DNA of 45,248 nucleotides. Origin: Gemmatimonadota bacterium. Lineage in GTDB: Bacteria > Gemmatimonadota > Gemmatimonadetes > Longimicrobiales > RSA9. How positions within the stretch are numbered: position 1 is the first letter of the stretch; each line of letters begins with the position of its first letter. Shown here one piece after another: positions 1 through 10,909 of the stretch. The stretch covers positions 1 through 45,248 of the forward strand of contig JBBDRO010000036.1 in NCBI GenBank assembly GCA_040905425.1, written 5' to 3'. The notes below the pieces were generated by a model. It did no database searches, was not told the origin of the DNA, and saw only the letters and a program-made list of their open reading frames with translations. Position numbers and translations under genes: made by a program.

Positions 1-52
1 AGGGGACATTTCTATCCGTAGCTGGAGGGGACATTATCATCCGTAGACAACA
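1..52. mobile_element. Terminal inverted repeat of an insertion sequence (IS1202/ISNCY- or IS481-like); the element body lies left of the window
   Basis: Two 21-bp direct subrepeats with 25-bp period (aggggacatttctatccgtag 1-21; aggggacattatcatccgtag 26-46), ending in ACAACA at 47-52. Reverse complement reads TGTTGT...ATAATGTCCCC...AAATGTCCCC, a TGT terminus with repeated transposase-binding boxes. No transposase is visible in the window. Confidence 0.7.
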
Positions 53-125
53 GGGAGACGTGCCGGACGGCTCATCTCACCGGGCTCCTCTCCAGAATTC
101 TGAACCGCACGTCGGGTATGCGCCC

Positions 126-1247
126 TCAGCGTCCCCGGACCCCGAGGCGCCAAAGGTCCAGCACGATGATGCCGTCCTCCAGCTCGCGCACCCCCACCAC
201 GTGCTCACCGTCCATCAGGGAGGTCAGGAGCCGGGAGGTGCTGCCGCCAGTCGCCACCACCTGCCCGGCGTCCACGTTCACAAGCTCGAGCACGGGGTCC
301 AGGAGCTCGTTCATGTCCAGGACCGGCTCCTGGGTCATGGCCCCCGATTGAAAGGCCGCGAACAGGTCCCGCACGCTGGTCATGTTTACGCGCTGCGCCA
401 GCACCCAGACCTCACCCGCGGAAGTGGGCGCCGCGCCGAAGGTCATGGCCGTGGTGCGGGCCTCCTGAATGTGCTGCATGGCCTCCTGCTCGCTGGCCAG
501 CTCCAGAGAGGGAAACCAGTAGGCCTGCCGGTCGATGGTGCGGAGCCGGCTGCCGTCCGCGTCCAGCACGTCCAGCCTGTAGCGGGTGGCGTGCAGCGCC
601 ACCAGGCGACCGTCCGGCAGGGCCACCACACCGGACTGTCCGGTGGTAGGGTTGTCGTCCGTAGGCGGTGTCGAGAGCTCCAGGCGGTCCACCTCCGCGC
701 CGGTGGCGTCCAGCACCGGTGCGCCTCCACCGGCCATGCTCATGACCGCCACCGTGCCGTCGCTGCGCGGCAGGATGCCCATAGCGCCCTGGTCCGCCGT
801 CACGGACCGCACGATCCGCTGCTCCGGGTCCACCACCGTGATGCGGCCGCCCCCGCTGACCACCCACAGGGAGTCCCCCGGGCCCACCACCAGATTCTGG
901 ATGCCACGGAACTCCCCGGGGCCACCCCCTTCCGTGCCGAAGGCGCCGCGGAAGCGACCGTCCGGCCCGTACATGGAAATGGTGCCCGGGGTGTAGGTAG
1001 GCGCCACGAAATAGCGGCCGCGTGAGTCGCGGGCCACCCGGGACTCCGTGGTGGGACCGTGGACCCCTGCATCCCATCCCAGCGCCAGGGTCGGGGTGAG
1101 GGTGACCCGGCAGGCGGGGCAGGAGCGACCCGGGGCAACGCTCAGGGAATCCTGGGCGCCGGCCGGAGCTGGTCCCATTGCCAGGAGGAGCACCGCCCCA
1201 ACCACCACGGCAGCGGCCGCGCGAAACATCCTGTCAGGTGCGTTCAT
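126..1247 (-). CDS. Secreted 6-bladed beta-propeller (NHL/TolB-like) protein
   Basis: ATG at 1247 (MNAPDRMFRAAAAVVVGAVLLLAMGPAPAGAQ, signal peptide), CPAC motif, ARDSRGRYFV and GTEGGGPGEFRGI NHL-like blade motifs. The upstream extension of the listed ORF overlaps the ftsK fragment and is not credible. Confidence 0.75.
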   Translation of the reverse strand: MNAPDRMFRAAAAVVVGAVLLLAMGPAPAGAQDSLSVAPGRSCPACRVTLTPTLALGWDAGVHGPTTESRVARDSRGRYFVAPTYTPGTISMYGPDGRFRGAFGTEGGGPGEFRGIQNLVVGPGDSLWVVSGGGRITVVDPEQRIVRSVTADQGAMGILPRSDGTVAVMSMAGGGAPVLDATGAEVDRLELSTPPTDDNPTTGQSGVVALPDGRLVALHATRYRLDVLDADGSRLRTIDRQAYWFPSLELASEQEAMQHIQEARTTAMTFGAAPTSAGEVWVLAQRVNMTSVRDLFAAFQSGAMTQEPVLDMNELLDPVLELVNVDAGQVVATGGSTSRLLTSLMDGEHVVGVRELEDGIIVLDLWRLGVRGR

Positions 1248-1254
1248 GGCTCGC

Positions 1255-1282
1255 AGTACGGCGGTAGTGGCCCGGAGGTTTC
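1255..1282 (-). promoter_or_regulatory. Putative ECF-sigma promoter, leaderless, for the beta-propeller gene
   Basis: Minus strand GAAACC-N16-CGTACT, 7 nt before the ATG at 1247; AAC/CGT cores typical of ECF promoters; no SD. Confidence 0.4.
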
Positions 1283-1389
1283 TACGGCTCCTTCGTACCC
1301 CGATGGGATGAGAGGCGTGGCGCGCATGACTGGAAGTTACGGCCCCACGCGTGCCATGCCTCGTTGCCTTCCCAAGATGCCGCGAACCC

Positions 1390-2037
1390 CTACAACCCCT
1401 CCAACGGATCCTCACAGATATGATCCAATGACTCCATCCCCACCAGCACCTCGCGCGGCTTGGAGCCGTCCGGGGGGCCGAGGATGCCGGCGTGGTGGAG
1501 CTGGTCCATGATGCGGGCGGCGCGGCCGTAGCCGATGCGCATGCGCCGCTGCAGGCGGGAGGTGCTGCCCTGCTGTTGCTGGATGCACACCTCGGCGGCC
1601 TGGCGGAAGAGCTCGTCGCGCTCCTCGAAGGGGGCCAGGTCGTCGGCGGAGGCCTCGTCCGCCTCGCGCGAGCGCACCATCTCCAGGATGTCGTCCTCAC
1701 TGGGCGGGCGGCCCGTGCGGTCGGCGGCCTCCCGGTACCAGTTCATGAGGCGCTCGGTGTCCTCCGTGGAGATGTAGGCGCCCTGGATGCGCACCGGGTC
1801 GGACTGACCGGGGGGGAGGAAGAGCATGTCCCCGTTGCCGAGCAGGGCGTCGGCGCCGTTCTGGTCCAGGATGGTGCGGCTGTCCACCTTGCTGCTCACG
1901 CGGAAGCCGATGCGGCAGGGGAAGTTGGCCTTGATGAGGCCCGTGATGACGTTCACGCTGGGGCGCTGCGTGGCCACGATCAGGTGGATGCCGATGGCGC
2001 GCGCCTTCTGCGCCAGCTGCTCGATTGGGCGCTCCAC
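1390..2037 (-). pseudogene. ftsK: Second, 5'-truncated copy of ftsK (end of motor domain plus gamma domain, 215 codons, open frame)
   Basis: Near-identical to the last 215 aa of the full ftsK (ARAIGIHLIVATQRPSVNVITGLIKANFP...IGYGRAARIMDQL...DPLEGL*). Lacks TM segments and Walker A/B. Confidence 0.9.
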
Positions 2038-2050
2038 CGCCGCTCCGGAA

Positions 2051-2079
2051 CCGCGGAGAATTCTCCGTTAACTCCGCGG
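2051..2079. other. Nested palindrome/hairpin at the cassette-repeat junction (possible terminator or recombination scar)
   Basis: ccgcggag (2051-2058) pairs with ctccgcgg (2072-2079); overlapping perfect palindrome cggagaattctccg (2054-2067). Confidence 0.6.
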
Positions 2080-2129
2080 CACGCTGACGGTATCGAGGAA
2101 TGGATACGCATTCCCCGCCGCGCAGCACG

Positions 2130-2657
2130 CTATCTCAGGCGACCATGCCCCATGAGAAGCACCTCTTTACCAATCATCCTAATTGCGCCGTGCTGCCAAC
2201 CGAAGGAATACCTCCAGGCTTCGACGAACGTACCCTTCGTTTCAAGTGAATTTCTGCCGAAGAAGACGACATCAACGTCGTACCCCTCTTGTGTCGTCCT
2301 AGGATTACTAAAGGTCACATGAATGGTCGAAGGCGACTGTAGACAGGATGTACGACCGCTACGCCCGCCACATACCTCGGCACCAGGAATTTCCCTCAAT
2401 AGGGCGACTATGACCGGCGACTCTGGTGATTCCAACAGCGTGGCTGCTCGAACAAATCGAATCGGCTCGTCGGCGTTGAATCGCTCTTGAATCACGCGTG
2501 GATCCACGAGCGGCTTCCGTTCTGCATACGCATCCGGCAGTTGCTTCAGTACCGAATGGTAGATTCTCACCACGTCGCTAGCTCGGGCTGGTTCCTGTGC
2601 GGCCAAGCCGCCGAAGGTAAGCAGCACAAGCACGAGGGTTGTGATTGCGCGTAGCAT
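2130..2657 (-). CDS. Hypothetical secreted protein, 175 aa (lower-GC cassette)
   Basis: SD AAGGAGAG before ATG; signal peptide MLRAITTLVLVLLTFGGLAAQ; one Cys pair; atypical codon usage. Confidence 0.75.
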   Translation of the reverse strand: MLRAITTLVLVLLTFGGLAAQEPARASDVVRIYHSVLKQLPDAYAERKPLVDPRVIQERFNADEPIRFVRAATLLESPESPVIVALLREIPGAEVCGGRSGRTSCLQSPSTIHVTFSNPRTTQEGYDVDVVFFGRNSLETKGTFVEAWRYSFGWQHGAIRMIGKEVLLMGHGRLR

Positions 2658-2703
2658 TGGAAACTCTCCTTACGAGCAAGTCAGCGGACGTCAGATCGCC
2701 GCG

Positions 2704-3195
2704 CTATTCCGCGTAGCTGCCGCACGACATTCCGATGAACTCAGCTTGGGACTCAGTCAGGTCGGTTACGCCATCGACCAGCCAGTCCTGATGATGTGCT
2801 TCTTCATGAATCGCAGTAGGGCCGAGATCCTCCAAGCCCTTGCTCGTAATTCGGGTGATGTTACCATATTCACCAGGCAATATGAAGCCGTAGGGATCGT
2901 CGGGGCCATCAGCAGTCCCGCCCCAACGAAAGCCGATATCAGTAGAAGGATGGTTATAGCGTGCAAGCGCATCATTCACGAGGTCCTCACACGACGAATT
3001 CGCAAAATGCGCAGCCAGGGCGTCTAGTTTCTGCTTAAGCCGCGTGCATTCATCATCTGGCAGGTCGCAGCTATAATAGTAAAATGATGGAGTACTGACG
3101 GGTGCGGTTGCGGTTAACCCGTCGTCAACTCCACACCCCCCGAGGACGCCCGCGCCAACGATAATGCCCACCAAGGGGGTGACAGCCAGTTTCAT
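2704..3195 (-). CDS. Hypothetical lipoprotein with HExxH zinc-metallopeptidase-like motif, 163 aa (lower-GC cassette)
   Basis: ATG at 3195 gives MKLAVTPLVGIIVGAGVLGGC (lipobox LGGC); TAIHEEAHH motif followed by ESQAE; four further Cys. Confidence 0.7.
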   Translation of the reverse strand: MKLAVTPLVGIIVGAGVLGGCGVDDGLTATAPVSTPSFYYYSCDLPDDECTRLKQKLDALAAHFANSSCEDLVNDALARYNHPSTDIGFRWGGTADGPDDPYGFILPGEYGNITRITSKGLEDLGPTAIHEEAHHQDWLVDGVTDLTESQAEFIGMSCGSYAE

Positions 3196-3238
3196 CTCGC
3201 TGCTCGCAAATGTGTGGGGAGCACAGACAACCATGATG

Positions 3239-3267
3239 AGTCTACCAAGATGGAGCAGCGAATGCAA
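3239..3267 (-). promoter_or_regulatory. Putative sigma70 promoter of the two-gene cassette
   Basis: Minus strand TTGCAT-N17-TAGACT with extended -10 TG, ~45 nt upstream of ATG 3195. Confidence 0.55.
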
Positions 3268-3394
3268 GCCTCTGACGCGTACCCAACGAGCGAGTACATG
3301 CGCGTGACAAGTCGTACCGAGAGTACTCATTCCAAACCAACCGCCAGGATCGGCGCAGGACGCTACAGCATCGGCGCCTCCAATTCGCAGGACC

Positions 3395-5656
3395 CTACAA
3401 CCCCTCCAACGGATCCTCACAGATATGGTCCAACGACTCCATCCCCACCAGCACCTCGCGCGGCTTGGAGCCGTCGGGCGGGCCCAGGACGCCGGCGTGG
3501 TGGAGCTGGTCCATGATGCGGGCGGCGCGGCCGTAGCCTATGCGCATGCGACGCTGCAGGAGGGAGGTGCTGCCCTGCTGCTGCTGGATGCACACCTCCG
3601 CGGCCTGGCGGAAGAGCTCGTCGCGCTCCTCGAAGGGGGCCAGGTCGTCGGCGGAGGCCTCGTCCGCCTCGCGCGAGCGCACCATCTCGAGGATGTCGTC
3701 CTCGCTCGGCGGGCGGCCCGTGCGGTCGGCGGCCTCGCGGTACCAGTTCATGAGCCGCTCGGTGTCCTCCGTGGAGATGTAGGCGCCCTGGATGCGCACG
3801 GGGTCGGACTGGCCGGGCGGCAGGAAGAGCATGTCCCCGTTGCCGAGCAGGGCATCGGCGCCGTTCTGGTCCAGGATGGTGCGGCTGTCCACCTTGCTGC
3901 TCACCCGGAAGCCGATGCGGCAGGGGAAGTTGGCCTTGATCAGCCCGGTGATGACGTTCACGCTGGGGCGCTGCGTGGCCACGATCAGGTGCATGCCGAT
4001 GGCGCGCGCCTTCTGGGCCAGTTGCGCGAGCGGCCGCTCCACCTCCGCCTGCACGGTCATCATGAGGTCGGCCAGCTCGTCCACCACCACCACGATGTAG
4101 GGCAGCGGGCCCTCGGTGTAGGCCCAGCGGTCGGGGTCGTTCTCCGAGCCGCTGGGGAAGGCGCGCCGGAGCTCCTGCCCCGACTCCGCGCGGCGGTTGA
4201 ACTCGGCCAGCGAACGGGCGCCGTTCTCCGAGAGCAGCGTGTAGCGCCGCTCCATCTCCATGACCGCCCACTTCAGGATGGTGGCGGCGTCCTGCGGGTC
4301 CGTGACCACCGGATGGCGCAGGTGCGGCAGGTCCCCGTACATGGAGAGCTCCACCATCTTCGGGTCCACCATGAGCAGGCGCATCTGCCGCGGCGAGTGC
4401 CGGTAGATGAGGCTGGTGATGATGGTGTTGATGCACACGCTCTTGCCCGAGCCCGTGGCGCCGGCAATGAGCAGGTGCGGCATGCGCGCCAGGTCCGCCA
4501 CGTAGGGACGGCCCATGAGGTCCTTGCCGAGCGCCAGCGGCAGCGTGCCGCGCGCGCGCTGGAAGGCGGGCGCCTCCAGGATGTCCCGCAGGTGCACCAC
4601 CTCGGGGCTGGGGTTGGGCACCTCCACGCCCACGGCGCCCTTGCCGGGGATGGGCGCCACGATGCGGATGCTCGGGGCGCGGAGCGCCAGCGCCAGGTCC
4701 GCGTCCAGCGCGGCGATGCGGTTCACCTTCACGCCGGGCGCCGGCACCACCTCGAACTGCGTCACCACGGGGCCGGTGGTGCGCCCGCCGATCTCCCCCT
4801 CCACCTTGAAGGTCCTGAGCGTGGCGATGAGCGTCTCACCCAGGCGGTCCAGCTCCGCGGAGGAAAGGCTGTCCCCCGCGGGCGGCGGCGCGGAGAGCGC
4901 CTGCATGGGCGGCCGGTCCGCGGACTCCGGATCGCCGGAATCCACGAGCACCGGCGCGGAGCCGCCCACCGCCTTCTTCACGCGCTTCTTCACCTTTTCC
5001 ATGACAGGCCGCGGTCCCGCGTCCGCCTCCGGCGCTCTCTCCAGCTCCAATTGCGCCTCTTCCTCCCACGGGCTCGGCGGCAGCTCCTCGGCGTGCACGT
5101 CGCCCTCGTCCACGGCGTCACCGCCCGAGCCGAAGGCGCGCAGCGCGCCCCACCCTCCCCACGCCAGCCCGCCCTGGCTCCAGCCGATGGTGGCGATCAC
5201 CAGCCCCACCAGGAGCACCGTGAGCACGAAGCCCGCGCCCACGGGGCCGAGCAGCGCCACCAGCGGCAGGCCGATGGCGCGGCCCACGAAGCCGGTGGGC
5301 GAGGGCGGCAGCAGCATGCCCCCCTCGGCGGACGTCTCCGGAATCCAGAGGGCGGCGGCGGCGGGCAGCAGGAAGGCCAGGCCCAGCAGCAGCGCCACCC
5401 AGCGCGCGCCTTGGTCCGCGGGCACCCGCCCCCACGCCCAGCCGGCGCCCACCGCCAGCGCCACGGGGATGATGAGCATGCCGATGCCGAAGAGGCCCAG
5501 CCCCCAACGCGCCGTGAGCGCGCCCAGGGGGCCCATGACGTTGCCCGCGGGAAAGTGCCGCGCCACGTCGGCGGGCAGCAGGCTCAGCAGGACGAAGAGG
5601 GCCAGCGCCGCGGAGGCCAGGCCCAGGAGCTGTCGGCGCTGCCGTTCGGTGACCAT
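3395..5656 (-). CDS. ftsK: DNA translocase FtsK
   Basis: N-terminal TM helices from MVTERQRR, PHLLIAGATGSGKS Walker A, VVVVDELAD Walker B, ATQRPS, C-terminal gamma domain STSLLQRRMRIGYGRAARIMD. Confidence 0.97.
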   Translation of the reverse strand: MVTERQRRQLLGLASAALALFVLLSLLPADVARHFPAGNVMGPLGALTARWGLGLFGIGMLIIPVALAVGAGWAWGRVPADQGARWVALLLGLAFLLPAAAALWIPETSAEGGMLLPPSPTGFVGRAIGLPLVALLGPVGAGFVLTVLLVGLVIATIGWSQGGLAWGGWGALRAFGSGGDAVDEGDVHAEELPPSPWEEEAQLELERAPEADAGPRPVMEKVKKRVKKAVGGSAPVLVDSGDPESADRPPMQALSAPPPAGDSLSSAELDRLGETLIATLRTFKVEGEIGGRTTGPVVTQFEVVPAPGVKVNRIAALDADLALALRAPSIRIVAPIPGKGAVGVEVPNPSPEVVHLRDILEAPAFQRARGTLPLALGKDLMGRPYVADLARMPHLLIAGATGSGKSVCINTIITSLIYRHSPRQMRLLMVDPKMVELSMYGDLPHLRHPVVTDPQDAATILKWAVMEMERRYTLLSENGARSLAEFNRRAESGQELRRAFPSGSENDPDRWAYTEGPLPYIVVVVDELADLMMTVQAEVERPLAQLAQKARAIGMHLIVATQRPSVNVITGLIKANFPCRIGFRVSSKVDSRTILDQNGADALLGNGDMLFLPPGQSDPVRIQGAYISTEDTERLMNWYREAADRTGRPPSEDDILEMVRSREADEASADDLAPFEERDELFRQAAEVCIQQQQGSTSLLQRRMRIGYGRAARIMDQLHHAGVLGPPDGSKPREVLVGMESLDHICEDPLEGL

Positions 5657-5682
5657 GGATGCTGCTCGGTCGGGGTGGGGGC

Positions 5683-7053
<1,371 letters not shown>

Positions 7054-8198: not shown

Positions 8199-10909
8199 TT
8201 CTTCAGACTCTGGAGCCAGGAGCGGAACATGTCCAGGTCCTCATCCGAGCCGGCGTCCTCCTCCGCATCATCCGTAAGCGACGTCCCCGCGTCACCTGCA
8301 CCGCCCAGCGCCGCCTGCGCGGCGCCATCGATCCCCCCATCGTCCCCCCCATCGTACCACGCCGCGAACGCCTCGGCCACGTCTCCCTCGTCCCGCGTGG
8401 CCGTCCCGGGCCGCCTTTCGGCGGCCGGCGGCGCCGGCGCTGCGGCCGGTGGTGGCGCCTCGGGCCGGGCCGCCGGGGCCTCGCCGCCCGCTGCCGGCTG
8501 CGCGTCATCGAGAGGGCTCTCGAAGGGAAACAGCTCATCCGCCGGCACCGCATCCGCGGTCGGCGTGAGGGACTCCGGCGGGGTCTCCGCGGTCGGCGGC
8601 GTGGCGGAGTCCGCCGCCTCGGGCGCCTCGTCCGCCGGCGGCAGCTCGAACGGGAACGGTTCGCCTGCGCCCGATGGGGGCGCGTCGGCGCGCGGCCCGT
8701 CCGCTACCGGCGCGTCCGGCCCCCGGCCGCCAGGTGCGGCCGCCTCGTCTACGATCTCGTCCAGCAGCAGCTCTTCGTCATCCGCATCCGCCGCGGCATC
8801 GCCCCCGGCCACATCCGCCGCGTCCACATCCGCCTCGGCGTCGATCCCTCGCGCGTCCGGCGCGGCCGCGAGCGCGTCCGCATCCGCCCCGGCACCGACG
8901 ACTTCCGAACCCGCCGCGGCTGCGACGCTCCCCGCATCCGCCGCGGGTGCCCCCTCCCCCGTGGCGGGGAGATCCTCACGCGGCCGCCAGGCCAGCACCT
9001 GGTCCAGATAGGACGCCGCCGACGGGCCGGACGGTGCCGCCGTGGGCTCCTCGGCGTCCTCCACGTCGGGCGCGTAGGGGCTCGGCTCGTCGTGGCCGGC
9101 TCCCGCGCCACCCGTCCACGCGGACTCCACGCCCTCCAGCCACGGCCTGGCACCCGCCGCGGGGGTCGACCGGGCGCCCGGCGCCGGCGGCTCGTCGGGG
9201 CGGGAGGTGGGACCCGGGCTCTCAGCCGCCGATTCGGCCGCTTCCGCCCGGCCAGCTTCCGCCGCTTCATCGCCGGCATCCTCTCCCCGGCCGAAGAAGG
9301 CATCCTCGAGGCCTCCCTGCGCGTCCGTCTCCTTGTCCTCCTCCCGCTCATCACCCGCAGAGAAGAAAACGTCCTCGAGCCCCGGCGGGGCATCCACGGT
9401 GCCGGCAGAATCCCCGGATGCCGCCCCGCCTGGCCCGGCCAGGACCGCCTCCGCCGCGGCCAGACGGGCCTCCAGACGCGCATCGCCCGGCCGCTCGCGG
9501 AGCAGGGCGCGGAAGATCTCCGCTGCGCGATCCGGAAAATTCTGGCGGAGATAGAGATCCGCCATGGTCTCCGTCATCATCTCGCTGGCCGGCGAGCGGC
9601 GCGACTCCCCGTCCGTGTCCTCATCAGGCGCCACGGCGGGTTTGTCCGATTCGCCTTCGGCCACGGATTCCGCGCCCGCGCCCGATTCCGCCTGGTAGAA
9701 GGCCAGATCCCCGGGCAGCTCCCCGGTGGCGTCGTCATCAAGGCCCGACCAGCCCAGATCCAGATCGTCAGCCGCCCCGGGGGCTTCCTCCGCCGCATCG
9801 CGATCCTCGGCATCCCACGGAGAGGCCGCGCCGCCTGGAACCTGGACCGTGCCTGGAACCTCGGCCGTGCCCGGGACATCGGCCGTGCCCGGGACATCGG
9901 CGGCGCCCGGGACATCGGCCGCGCCCGGAACATCGGCAGCGCCCGGGACATCGTCCGCGCCCGGGACATCGTCCGCGCCCGGGACATCGTCCGCGCCCGG
10001 GACATCGTCCGCGCTCGGTAGGTCCTGCCCGCCCGGTACATCCTGCCCGCCCGGTAGGTCCTGCCCGCCCGGAATATCCTGCCCCCCCGACATCGAGAGC
10101 TCCGGCTCCGCCCCGGCGTCCTCCGCGGACTCGCCGACAGGCGGCTCCAGATCCAGATCGTCATCCGCGCCCCACCCGCTGCCGCTCTCGAAACCGCCCA
10201 GCTCCAGGTCCCCGCCAGCGGTCTGACCATCGTCCGTGTCGAAGCCGGACAGATCCAGATCTCCGCCGCCAACGGAATCGGCCTCCGCATCGGCCGTCGA
10301 CCCCGCGTCGTGGGGCAGCTCGAAACGGTCCTCCTGGCCCGTGTCCTCGGCGGGCGCGGCGGAGCCGGCGGGTGCATCGAGGTCGGGCAGGTCGAGGAGG
10401 TCGTGCGTGGGACCGTCGCTTGATGCTTCGTACGGGGCGTACGCCGACGCACCCGGAGACGGCTCCGGCGGAGCGGCCTCGGACGCAGCCTCACGCTCGC
10501 CCTCCGCCCGGAGGGCCGCCACCTTCTCCTGGAGCTCCTCGTCACCCCGATCCCGGTGCAGGAGCTCGTCGTAGTAGCCGAGCGCCGCCTGGTGGTCCCC
10601 CGCCTGCTCGGCCAGGTCACCCAGCGTACGCAGCGCCACCAGGTTCTGGGGGTCCAGTTCGATAACCCGGCGGAAAGCGTTGCCGGCGGCCGTGTTCTCC
10701 CCCTGGTCCATGAGGATCCGGCCCAGCACCACGTGGGCACTGGAATAGTCCTCGTGGCGTGCCAGACCCGCCTCCAGAATCTCGCGGGCGCGCTCCAGTT
10801 CGCCCGCCTTGCGGTGGGCCTCGGCTAGATGGGTGAATACCCGTCCATCCGGATTTGCGGCGTAGAGCGCCTCGAGCTTGTCGATCTCGTCCCGGTTGGA
10901 CTCGGCCAT
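8195..10909 (-). CDS. TPR protein with long acidic low-complexity region
   Basis: N-terminal TPRs from MAESNRDEI, central [14 protein letters not shown]-like motif, C-terminal amphipathic [18 protein letters not shown] overlap with aroQ. Confidence 0.85.
9833..10087 (-). repeat. 18-bp coding tandem repeat, 14 units (GGQDxP / GADDVP / GAADVP / GTAxVP)
   Basis: Repeated gcccgggacatcgtccgc-type units visible in both DNA and protein. Confidence 0.92.

Follow-up and report, generated by a model that had tools for sequence, protein, structure and literature searches.

How does the end of an essential gene come to stand twice in a chromosome, with foreign DNA between the two copies? The question is raised by the start of contig C36 of a Gemmatimonadota bacterium, of which we analysed the first 45,248 nucleotides (nt; hereafter the window). 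The parent assembly (G000) comprises 4.12 Mb in 115 contigs, which are given here with the label C. Near the left end of the window, the 3′ part of ftsK is present in the intact gene and again as an orphan fragment, beyond a low-GC insert. The explanation that we favour, at about an even chance of being correct, is a single insertion-duplication in the 3′ part of ftsK that displaced the tail of the gene, inside a strain-variable stretch between ftsK and lolA. The arrangement is of a known general kind; what is unusual is the length of the repeat and the lack of a recombinase, and we do not claim that it forms a system.

An earlier note on this DNA, made from the letters alone, had described the last ~650 bp of ftsK as present twice, in the same orientation and without indels. 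This description holds: a direct repeat of 656 nt links positions 1388–2043 and 3393–4048 with 94.97% identity, zero indels and a spacing of exactly 2005. The homology, said to end within a few bases of the stop codon, ends 2 nt beyond the TAG. By blastn and tblastn, these two are the only copies of the ftsK tail in the 4.12-Mb assembly, and a third copy elsewhere on the contig or in the genome, which the earlier note had envisaged, did not turn up. The first copy (3393–4048, minus strand) consists of the final 651 coding nucleotides of a working ftsK, its stop codon and 2 nt. Read from the first GTG, that gene (3395–6043, minus strand) is an open reading frame (ORF) of 882 amino acids, and the true start possibly lies further in. 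Its frame is open, it carries the Pfam domains FtsK_4TM, FtsK_alpha, FtsK_SpoIIIE (E 1.3e-65) and FtsK_gamma, and its DNA is ~80% identical to ftsK of the nearest genera. The second copy (1388–2043, minus strand) is an orphan 3′ fragment with an open frame of 215 amino acids (1390–2037), in which Pfam still recognizes the final 27 profile positions of the motor domain and, beyond the linker, the gamma domain. Upstream, the homology ends at 4048/2043, just past the Walker B segment. Mismatch density peaks at this boundary, where identity is lower rather than perfect and the longest exact run at the edge is 9 nt.

The differences between the two tails bear on where they arose. There are 33 in 651 coding nucleotides, 28 of them at third codon positions (binomial P 1.5e-9 against equal positions), and the encoded FtsK ends are 97% identical, with 6 differences in 217 codons. 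Nei–Gojobori counting gives 27 synonymous (Sd) and 6 nonsynonymous (Nd) differences, a synonymous divergence (dS) of 0.20 and a ratio of nonsynonymous to synonymous divergence (dN/dS) of 0.06. If one copy had drifted freely, ~45% of the differences would be expected at third positions, compared with the 85% observed (P = 2.7e-6). The third-position bias and the low dN/dS indicate that the tails diverged as working ftsK genes in separate lineages and not in place, and therefore that at least one tail was imported. Judged by these substitutions, the two tails are alleles from different lineages and not the products of a local duplication.

The orphan alone carries three replacements, L>I, A>E and L>R, at positions that are conserved in 99 of 99, 94 of 99 and 101 of 101 aligned relatives, respectively (from a set of 101), and the L>R replacement falls in the gamma domain. 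The intact copy's own changes (M and V) are conservative and are also seen in relatives. Because the three replacements lie at invariant or near-invariant positions, the orphan is a decaying remnant under relaxed constraint. It is young and non-functional, with decay begun and the frame still open.

Between the two copies lie 1,349 nt of cargo (2044–3392, minus strand), which are spanned by a contig from a second assembler (run X1, below). As the earlier note had it, this DNA is of lower GC content, at 51.5–59% measured between the copies versus 65–78% in the surroundings and ~70% in the genome, and it is compositionally foreign. Its two genes for exported proteins are likewise borne out: both lie on the minus strand and encode a signal or lipoprotein peptide. 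Four ORFs of the insert were scanned and matched no integrase or transposase family, in keeping with the earlier note. The promoter of its own that had been ascribed to the cargo was not confirmed: the sole sigma-70-like match in positions 1–6200 sits on the wrong strand.

Cargo gene A (2704–3195, minus strand) encodes a predicted lipoprotein of 163 amino acids, whose translation contains a lipobox (LGGC) and an HEEAH motif. The protein has no match in Pfam or NCBIfam. A word-seeded search of 5.8 billion proteins returned only the protein itself, and an exhaustive HMMER search of 1.84 billion representatives gave only seven remote homologues (30–43% identity). In their alignment (A1), H130, E131, E152 and two cysteines are invariant. 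We take HEEAH together with E152 to be the HExxH…E signature of zinc peptidases; leads from the Atlas to zincin families were all under the Atlas thresholds. On these residues, cargo protein A is a candidate small zinc metallopeptidase. Cargo gene B (2130–2657, minus strand) encodes a protein of 175 amino acids with an N-terminal signal-like helix and no known family; it matched nothing in Pfam or NCBIfam and only itself among the 5.8 billion proteins. Single-sequence AlphaFold2 (AF2) models of proteins A and B, with predicted local distance difference test (pLDDT) scores of 34.9 and 42.6, respectively, were too poor for a fold search. No toxin or immunity family in Pfam or NCBIfam matched either protein (Padloc was not searched), and both are near-orphans. 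The cargo DNA had no match in 40 relatives, all from other genera, in 72,556 plasmids or in 50,697 phage records, and an alignment-based search of genome contigs gave 14 pattern matches, zero of them confirmed. Searches for RNA features returned no Rfam family in positions 1–7000 and no tRNA anywhere in the window, and none of the three junction regions has a significant fold.

A layout of this kind could also be made by an assembler that stitches two co-occurring strains, or a chromosome and a 2-kb circle, into one contig. The window was therefore set against Logan contigs, which come from a different assembler (k = 31). One index search led to 16 runs (X1–X16), among which three runs of one study hold at least half of the words, and the contigs of X1, X2, X3 and X5 were aligned to positions 1–6100. 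X1–X3 share one study and may include the source reads, which makes this a test of the assembler and not of the sample. X5–X16 carry small shares of the stretch; of these, only X5 was used, and we make no habitat or strain claim from the others. Contig-free parts of the stretch in X2, X3 and X5 were not counted as evidence. In X1, a contig at 1957–3422 (0 differences, depth 39.4) spans the cargo and crosses the cargo/orphan joint with 87 nt of orphan-specific sequence, a second at 3962–6047 (0 differences, depth 39.1) leads from the intact tail across 4048/4049 into the gene body, and three contigs over 26–1417 (0 differences, depth 26–35) cover the flank beyond the orphan, which holds a propeller gene. 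The cargo/orphan joint is found again in another sample, X2 (1960–2509, 0 differences, depth 5), together with a contig at 3962–4087 that crosses 4048/4049 into the gene body, and a contig of X3 (1127–1615, 1 difference, depth 5.8) ties the propeller flank to the orphan allele.

The chimeric assembly of two strains that the earlier note had considered thus finds little room, the non-homologous joints 2043/2044 and 1387/1388 each being bridged with allele-specific letters by contigs of X1, X2 and X3. The depth of the cargo in X1 equals that of the ftsK body, with the somewhat lower values given above for the propeller flank, and a free circle at the exact chromosomal copy number is unlikely. 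Junction-spanning contigs in three samples and the equal depth argue against a chimera. Some observations do favour it: the sample holds at least one other strain with a near-identical ftsK, contigs of k = 31 cannot phase over the 35 nt that are common to both alleles at 3393–3427, and at 1476–1485 the sole X1 contig listed departs from the window. Taken together, we regard an assembly artefact as very unlikely.

The place of the insertion became clear by comparison with relatives of the same family and order. In these, ftsK is followed by lolA, which in most loci starts 17–130 nt past the stop codon, and lolA by a radical-SAM gene of the MiaB/RimO type (rimO) and a class-III aminotransferase gene. 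This synteny is interrupted in the present genome, where lolA, rimO and the aminotransferase gene lie 3.07 kb from the end of contig C100. The left end of the window stops within an insertion sequence (IS)-like repeat, as the earlier note had recognized: positions 1–69 consist of an unassembled repeat end (1–53), identical to the start of C22 and the end of C39, and a 16-nt flank (54–69) that recurs on C100. There, at its end, C100 stops in the end of the repeat opposite to the one in which C36 starts, both contigs having the same 16-nt flank, and a second contig pair (C39 end, C52 start) has the same arrangement with a different 16-mer. An IS with matching 16-nt flanks would join the end of C100 to the start of the window, and the order would then be ftsK, cargo, orphan ftsK′, propeller gene, IS, two small ORFs, a second NHL-type propeller gene and lolA. 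By this reconstruction, more than 6 kb of what appears to be strain-specific DNA occupies the place of the short ftsK–lolA spacer of relatives.

The propeller gene next to the orphan (126–1247, minus strand) encodes a secreted, NHL-type propeller-like protein of 373 amino acids, with a signal peptide and a weak NCBIfam NHL match (E 4e-4). Its GC content is normal, and it has paralogues on C67 and C103. On C100, the last 3.1 kb between the IS and lolA hold ORFs of 179 and 157 amino acids and the second secreted NHL-type propeller gene (378 amino acids), which places propeller genes on both sides of the IS. The idea that the first propeller gene was the cargo of a previous unit is not supported: the gene does lie in DNA absent from relatives between ftsK and lolA, yet it is not delimited by another ftsK′. 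The three tyrosine recombinase (PF00589) genes of the genome are on C21, C80 and C94, and neither C36 nor the C100 end carries one; no genome-wide search was made for serine recombinase families.

The IS-like element is present in multiple copies and breaks at least six contigs (its sites being window 1–69, C100 end, C22 start, C39 end, C52 start, C108 end and C103:57931). Each of its ends has two copies of an 18-nt motif, its interior is not in the assembly, and 16-nt duplications stand on either side of two of its insertions. A GTCAAG/GTCAAAG word that resembles the element's own terminus lies 15–16 nt outside the end in three left flanks. A candidate for a third, older ftsK-tail remnant at the IS site was rejected: the 16-nt IS flank resembled the repeat unit of another genome (G008, below), but over 12 nt only and in reverse orientation (E 0.21), and with 8 occurrences of this 12-mer genome-wide the match is put down to chance. 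In a more distant group of Gemmatimonadota (soil metagenome loci L055–L110), ftsK is followed by a UPF0102 (YraN-like) gene and recA, not by lolA and rimO; UPF0102 matches account for 24 of the 98 ORFs scanned downstream of ftsK.

The DNA after ftsK varies among close strains. A sister strain in X2 (depth ~15) differs at 5 sites in 1,988 nt of the ftsK body. Its tail is of the intact type from 3485 upward, except that it shares two letters with the orphan (3428 and 3434) and has two of its own (3458 and 3479), and past its stop codon come 393 nt unlike the cargo and unlike the orphan's flank. In X1, a 74-nt contig (1443–1516, depth 17.5) is orphan-type at 1471 and 1474, intact-type at 1480 and 1485, and private at 1476. 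X5, which is from another study, contributes one contig in which an ftsK tail is followed by the first 31 nt of the orphan's flank (1357–1387) and then by 4.2 kb unlike the window, and a second contig with the propeller gene (37 differences in 1,076 nt) whose upstream side is unlike the window. The orphan's flank is thus probably the older context. Alleles that join intact-type to orphan-type sequence near 3480–3484 exist, and they are compatible with the expected look of a pre-insertion allele or of the excision product of a single reciprocal crossover. The ftsK–lolA interval behaves as the site of a flexible island does, in that the flanking genes are conserved in relatives and the X2 and X5 strains carry other DNA past the ftsK stop codon.

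If this were a locus dedicated to capturing cassettes, the arrangement should recur. Searching the orphan protein against 400 other genomes of the phylum gave nine with two matches, none of which is a second tail beside ftsK: distant paralogues account for four, single genes divided between contig ends for another four, and one genome (G032) has two near-full copies on different contigs. At the protein level, none of these 400 genomes, of 18 fetched loci from relatives or of 80 loci from metagenomes has a second ftsK C-terminal copy adjacent to ftsK. A long orphan tail was found in none of the 40 relatives, and an exact-tail degenerate pattern had 0 matches in metagenome contigs. The best metagenome relative has 84% protein identity, and the collections searched held no strain of the same species outside this study. 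The two copies of G032 (C13:72060-72713 and C103:492-1142) share 70% and 74% identity with the query tail. Next to one of them stands lolA, as usual, whereas RCC1-repeat and HD-domain genes follow the other; the second ftsK is either a paralogue or contamination. In G088, G235, G247 and G377 (4 of 400), a contig break separates the motor domain of ftsK from the gamma domain, with both pieces at contig ends, which could reflect a hypervariable linker or unresolved tail repeats.

Smaller repeats do occur at the ends of other ftsK genes. Self-comparison of 101 non-redundant loci (760 kb) yielded 8 direct-repeat pairs outside two repeat-protein genes, and five pairs in four loci reach the last 150 nt of ftsK. 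On a metagenome contig (L108, 2219–3791), a degenerate, frameshifted 141-nt copy of the ftsK tail lies 1.43 kb downstream of ftsK, with a PIN-domain toxin and Phd/YefM antitoxin pair and a gene fragment in between. In G008 (L013, C139, 1538–2000), the last ~36–64 nt of ftsK plus a spacer are repeated three times in tandem between ftsK and lolA; an array of ~66-nt units with the palindrome GCAACGTTGC comes after the tandem ftsK ends. In G015, an unpublished genome and the sole basis for this case, a 52-nt tail copy lies 150 nt downstream and is followed by a HEPN gene. A repeat at the ftsK stop codon of L054 was set aside, as it is a long palindromic element of the GCGGAATG type after two genes and not ftsK sequence. 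This palindrome of ~105 nt, built of GCGGAATG/GCGGAGTG words, stands behind ftsK and behind a gene 6.6 kb off (2019–2122 and 8682–8785), and looks like a REP-like (repetitive extragenic palindromic) or terminator-like repeat. By these comparisons, the end of ftsK is enriched for small duplications in Gemmatimonadota, all of different lengths and none like the 656-nt case.

We consider it very unlikely that the locus is a dedicated, reusable site for the ftsK-anchored capture and exchange of cassettes, at which units stack, amplify and are swapped; this would be the single-crossover model (below) at its boldest. Direct repeats of 656 nt would permit RecA-dependent excision and reintegration, the region past ftsK is variable among close strains, small accessory genes (toxin–antitoxin, HEPN, PDDEXK and DinB) lie directly past ftsK in some other loci, and three other loci have tail repeats. 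However, the copies number only two, with no adjacent pair in any of the genomes and loci searched, so the recurrence that the earlier note's model would predict is not seen. The exact-tail search came back empty, no cargo family can be linked to ftsK because both cargo proteins are near-orphans, and the orphan is decaying. Nor is there a stacked or integron-like array: the genome contains no third copy of the repeat, and no tyrosine recombinase gene is nearby. A related idea, somewhat less improbable in our view but still doubtful, is that the 2,005-nt unit is a recombinase-free mobile cassette. It would leave as a circle by recombination between the tails and spread among related strains, entering each by a single crossover that always rebuilds ftsK, so that the ftsK–lolA interval would be a site of homology-driven exchange and the repeats in the three other loci older traces of it.

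The reading that we prefer is a single insertion-duplication. The donor would have been DNA from a related lineage, in which the last ~650 nt of that lineage's own ftsK allele were joined at the stop codon to the 1.35-kb low-GC cassette of two genes. Recombination of this DNA with the resident ftsK would have kept the gene whole and placed the cassette past its stop codon, and one copy of the tail would have been stranded downstream as a non-functional orphan that then began to decay. The most likely route would be one reciprocal (Campbell-type) crossover between ftsK and a circular or tandem molecule of ~2 kb; the circular donor, the crossover point and the enzyme, be it RecA or a recombinase in trans, are what we infer. 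Such a single crossover ranks first because it needs nothing that is absent here, explains the 656-nt repeat and fits the common breakpoint hinted at near 3480–3484, where the X2 sister tail and the 74-nt X1 contig are compatible with one reciprocal exchange at very few informative sites. The single-crossover layout proposed in the earlier note therefore stands in part: the order ftsK, cargo, ftsK′ is real, the cargo is foreign and the tails are allelic, as expected from the integration of an ftsK 3′ end plus cargo, but no circle was found. The 2005-bp circle or empty-site reads anticipated there did not appear, as the Logan contigs, which drop rare variants, include no circular form, tandem joint or exact empty site. 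Joints listed as skipping ~2005 nt were considered as empty sites and discarded, because they have unlike letters on their two sides and sides of 24 nt, and they come from the ftsK genes of other organisms. Several further points weigh against the single crossover. No Logan contig crosses from the cargo into the intact allele, owing to the common 35 nt, and this link rests on the original assembly and on elimination. X1–X3, possibly the source sample, are not independent of the reads. The mosaic argument involves so few sites that private mutations or gene conversion are equally possible, the flank of the sister strain resembles neither cargo nor orphan flank, leaving no clean pre-insertion state in view, and the model does not account for the first origin of a 2-kb circle with an ftsK fragment.

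Two other routes compete with the single crossover. The more serious, which we place second and consider possible but unlikely, is that the unit is a remnant or non-autonomous site-specific integrative element that used the 3′ part of ftsK as its attB site and brought a replacement 3′ end, as e14 does at icd, with its integrase lost or acting in trans. The icd–icdC architecture of e14 is alike: as described in the available part of the source (PMC13626634), the target gene reads into the element, and a C-terminal pseudogene with mostly synonymous differences stands at the far end. The halt of the homology at the stop codon would also be expected if only the reading frame had to be rebuilt, and short or degenerate ftsK-tail repeats are present in the three other Gemmatimonadota loci (141 nt in L108, tandem in G008 and 52 nt in the unpublished G015). 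However, a search for the integrase that defines such elements came back negative: the 2,005-nt unit, C36 and the C100 end are all devoid of integrase, excisionase, phage and conjugation genes, and none of the ORFs scanned past ftsK in other loci (98 out of 157 candidates, comprising the first ORF of every locus and the second of some) encodes an integrase. The 656-nt repeat far exceeds the 12–54-bp direct repeats that the available part of PMC4701971 gives for streptococcal integrative and conjugative elements (ICEs). No two of the four loci agree in repeat length, which leaves them without a common crossover point; near its upstream boundary, the repeat is less well matched rather than perfect; and viral contigs hold only distant FtsK-like genes and no ftsK fragments. 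The other route, ranked third and in our judgement improbable, is the import of linear DNA from a relative. One end would have paired homologously within ftsK and the other would have been joined illegitimately (homology-facilitated illegitimate recombination, or C-terminal displacement of the rhs/cdiA kind); alternatively, a ready-made ftsK–cargo–ftsK′ donor would have been taken up by a double crossover. The tail is polymorphic, with 4 of the sister strain's differences crowded into 3428–3479 as against the 5 in its gene body, a pattern that fits a recombination tract ending in the last ~90 nt, and the ftsK–lolA interval differs between strains (X2 and X5 contigs), as it does at replacement islands. 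Moreover, divergence from the X5 strain is lower in the orphan (12 differences in 331 nt) and in the propeller gene than in the ftsK motor region (20 in 279 nt and 44 in 477 nt), although the identities of different parts of genes are not directly comparable. Against linear import, an illegitimate join would not be favoured at a point upstream of where the homology ends. A double crossover with a ready-made donor only pushes the origin back, and microhomology does not settle the joint at 2043/2044.

If the single insertion-duplication is correct, a small foreign cassette that brings along a homologous replacement tail can enter an essential gene harmlessly, although no integrase is apparent. 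Should such events recur, conserved essential genes could act as homology anchors for integrase-free gene gain between related strains, a route that island finders keyed on integrases, tRNA genes and short att sites would miss. The current tally is one clear case, in an uncultured host, and three weak traces in the phylum.

Several known systems share parts of this arrangement. Phage 21 is found at icd of Escherichia coli in the same arrangement as prophage e14. Prophage e14 is 15 kb long, carries its own site-specific integrase and is excised upon SOS induction. According to the available part of the source, it brings a new 3′ end for icd and leaves the old one orphaned at the far side as the C-terminal pseudogene icdC, with mainly synonymous differences between the copies, and recombination between these restores a chimeric gene (PMC13626634). 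In comparison with e14, the locus studied here likewise keeps the target intact through a replacement 3′ end, has repeats that are the 3′ end of the target and has orphaned the old end, but its unit measures 2 kb, encodes neither a recombinase nor phage functions and is bounded by a 656-nt repeat. In Streptococcus, ICEs and integrative and mobilizable elements (IMEs) use the ends of housekeeping genes as sites, among them the 5′ end of ftsK, with repeats of 12–54 bp and with integrase and conjugation modules, as reported in the available part of PMC4701971. Like them, the present insertion uses a conserved essential gene as its site with minimal damage, ftsK being among their targets too; unlike the ICEs described in that part, it lies at the 3′ end of ftsK, has a 656-nt repeat and has no integrase that we could find. 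None of the papers listed by our literature search on ftsK integration sites describes an insertion into the 3′ part of ftsK that left a long duplication. A search for integrase-free islands pointed to papers on the microcin H47 island (PMC3191183, PMC5426353).

Flexible genomic islands are normally exchanged by a double crossover in both flanks, which leaves no flank duplicated. The ftsK–lolA interval resembles them in its fixed site, its strain-specific accessory genes and the raised diversity in the end of the flanking gene, and differs in that a flank is duplicated here. At rhs, cdiA and type VI secretion system (T6SS) effector loci, C-terminal displacement swaps polymorphic toxin tips together with immunity genes, and the arrays recur across strains. 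There, as here, newly gained genes separate the main gene from a displaced 3′ fragment that retains part of the conserved sequence; here, by contrast, both tails encode the same FtsK end, and the genomes and loci searched contain no recurring arrays. The nearest parallel to a single crossover is Campbell-type insertion-duplication, used with suicide plasmids in insertion-duplication mutagenesis, in which a homologous segment is duplicated around the insert without a dedicated recombinase, and reversal excises a circle of one repeat plus the insert. The ftsK locus likewise has a same-orientation duplication that is long enough for RecA and that brackets heterologous low-GC DNA. Campbell-type insertion is, however, known mainly from the laboratory, whereas in this bacterium the donor fragment would end exactly at the stop codon and the essential gene has been kept.

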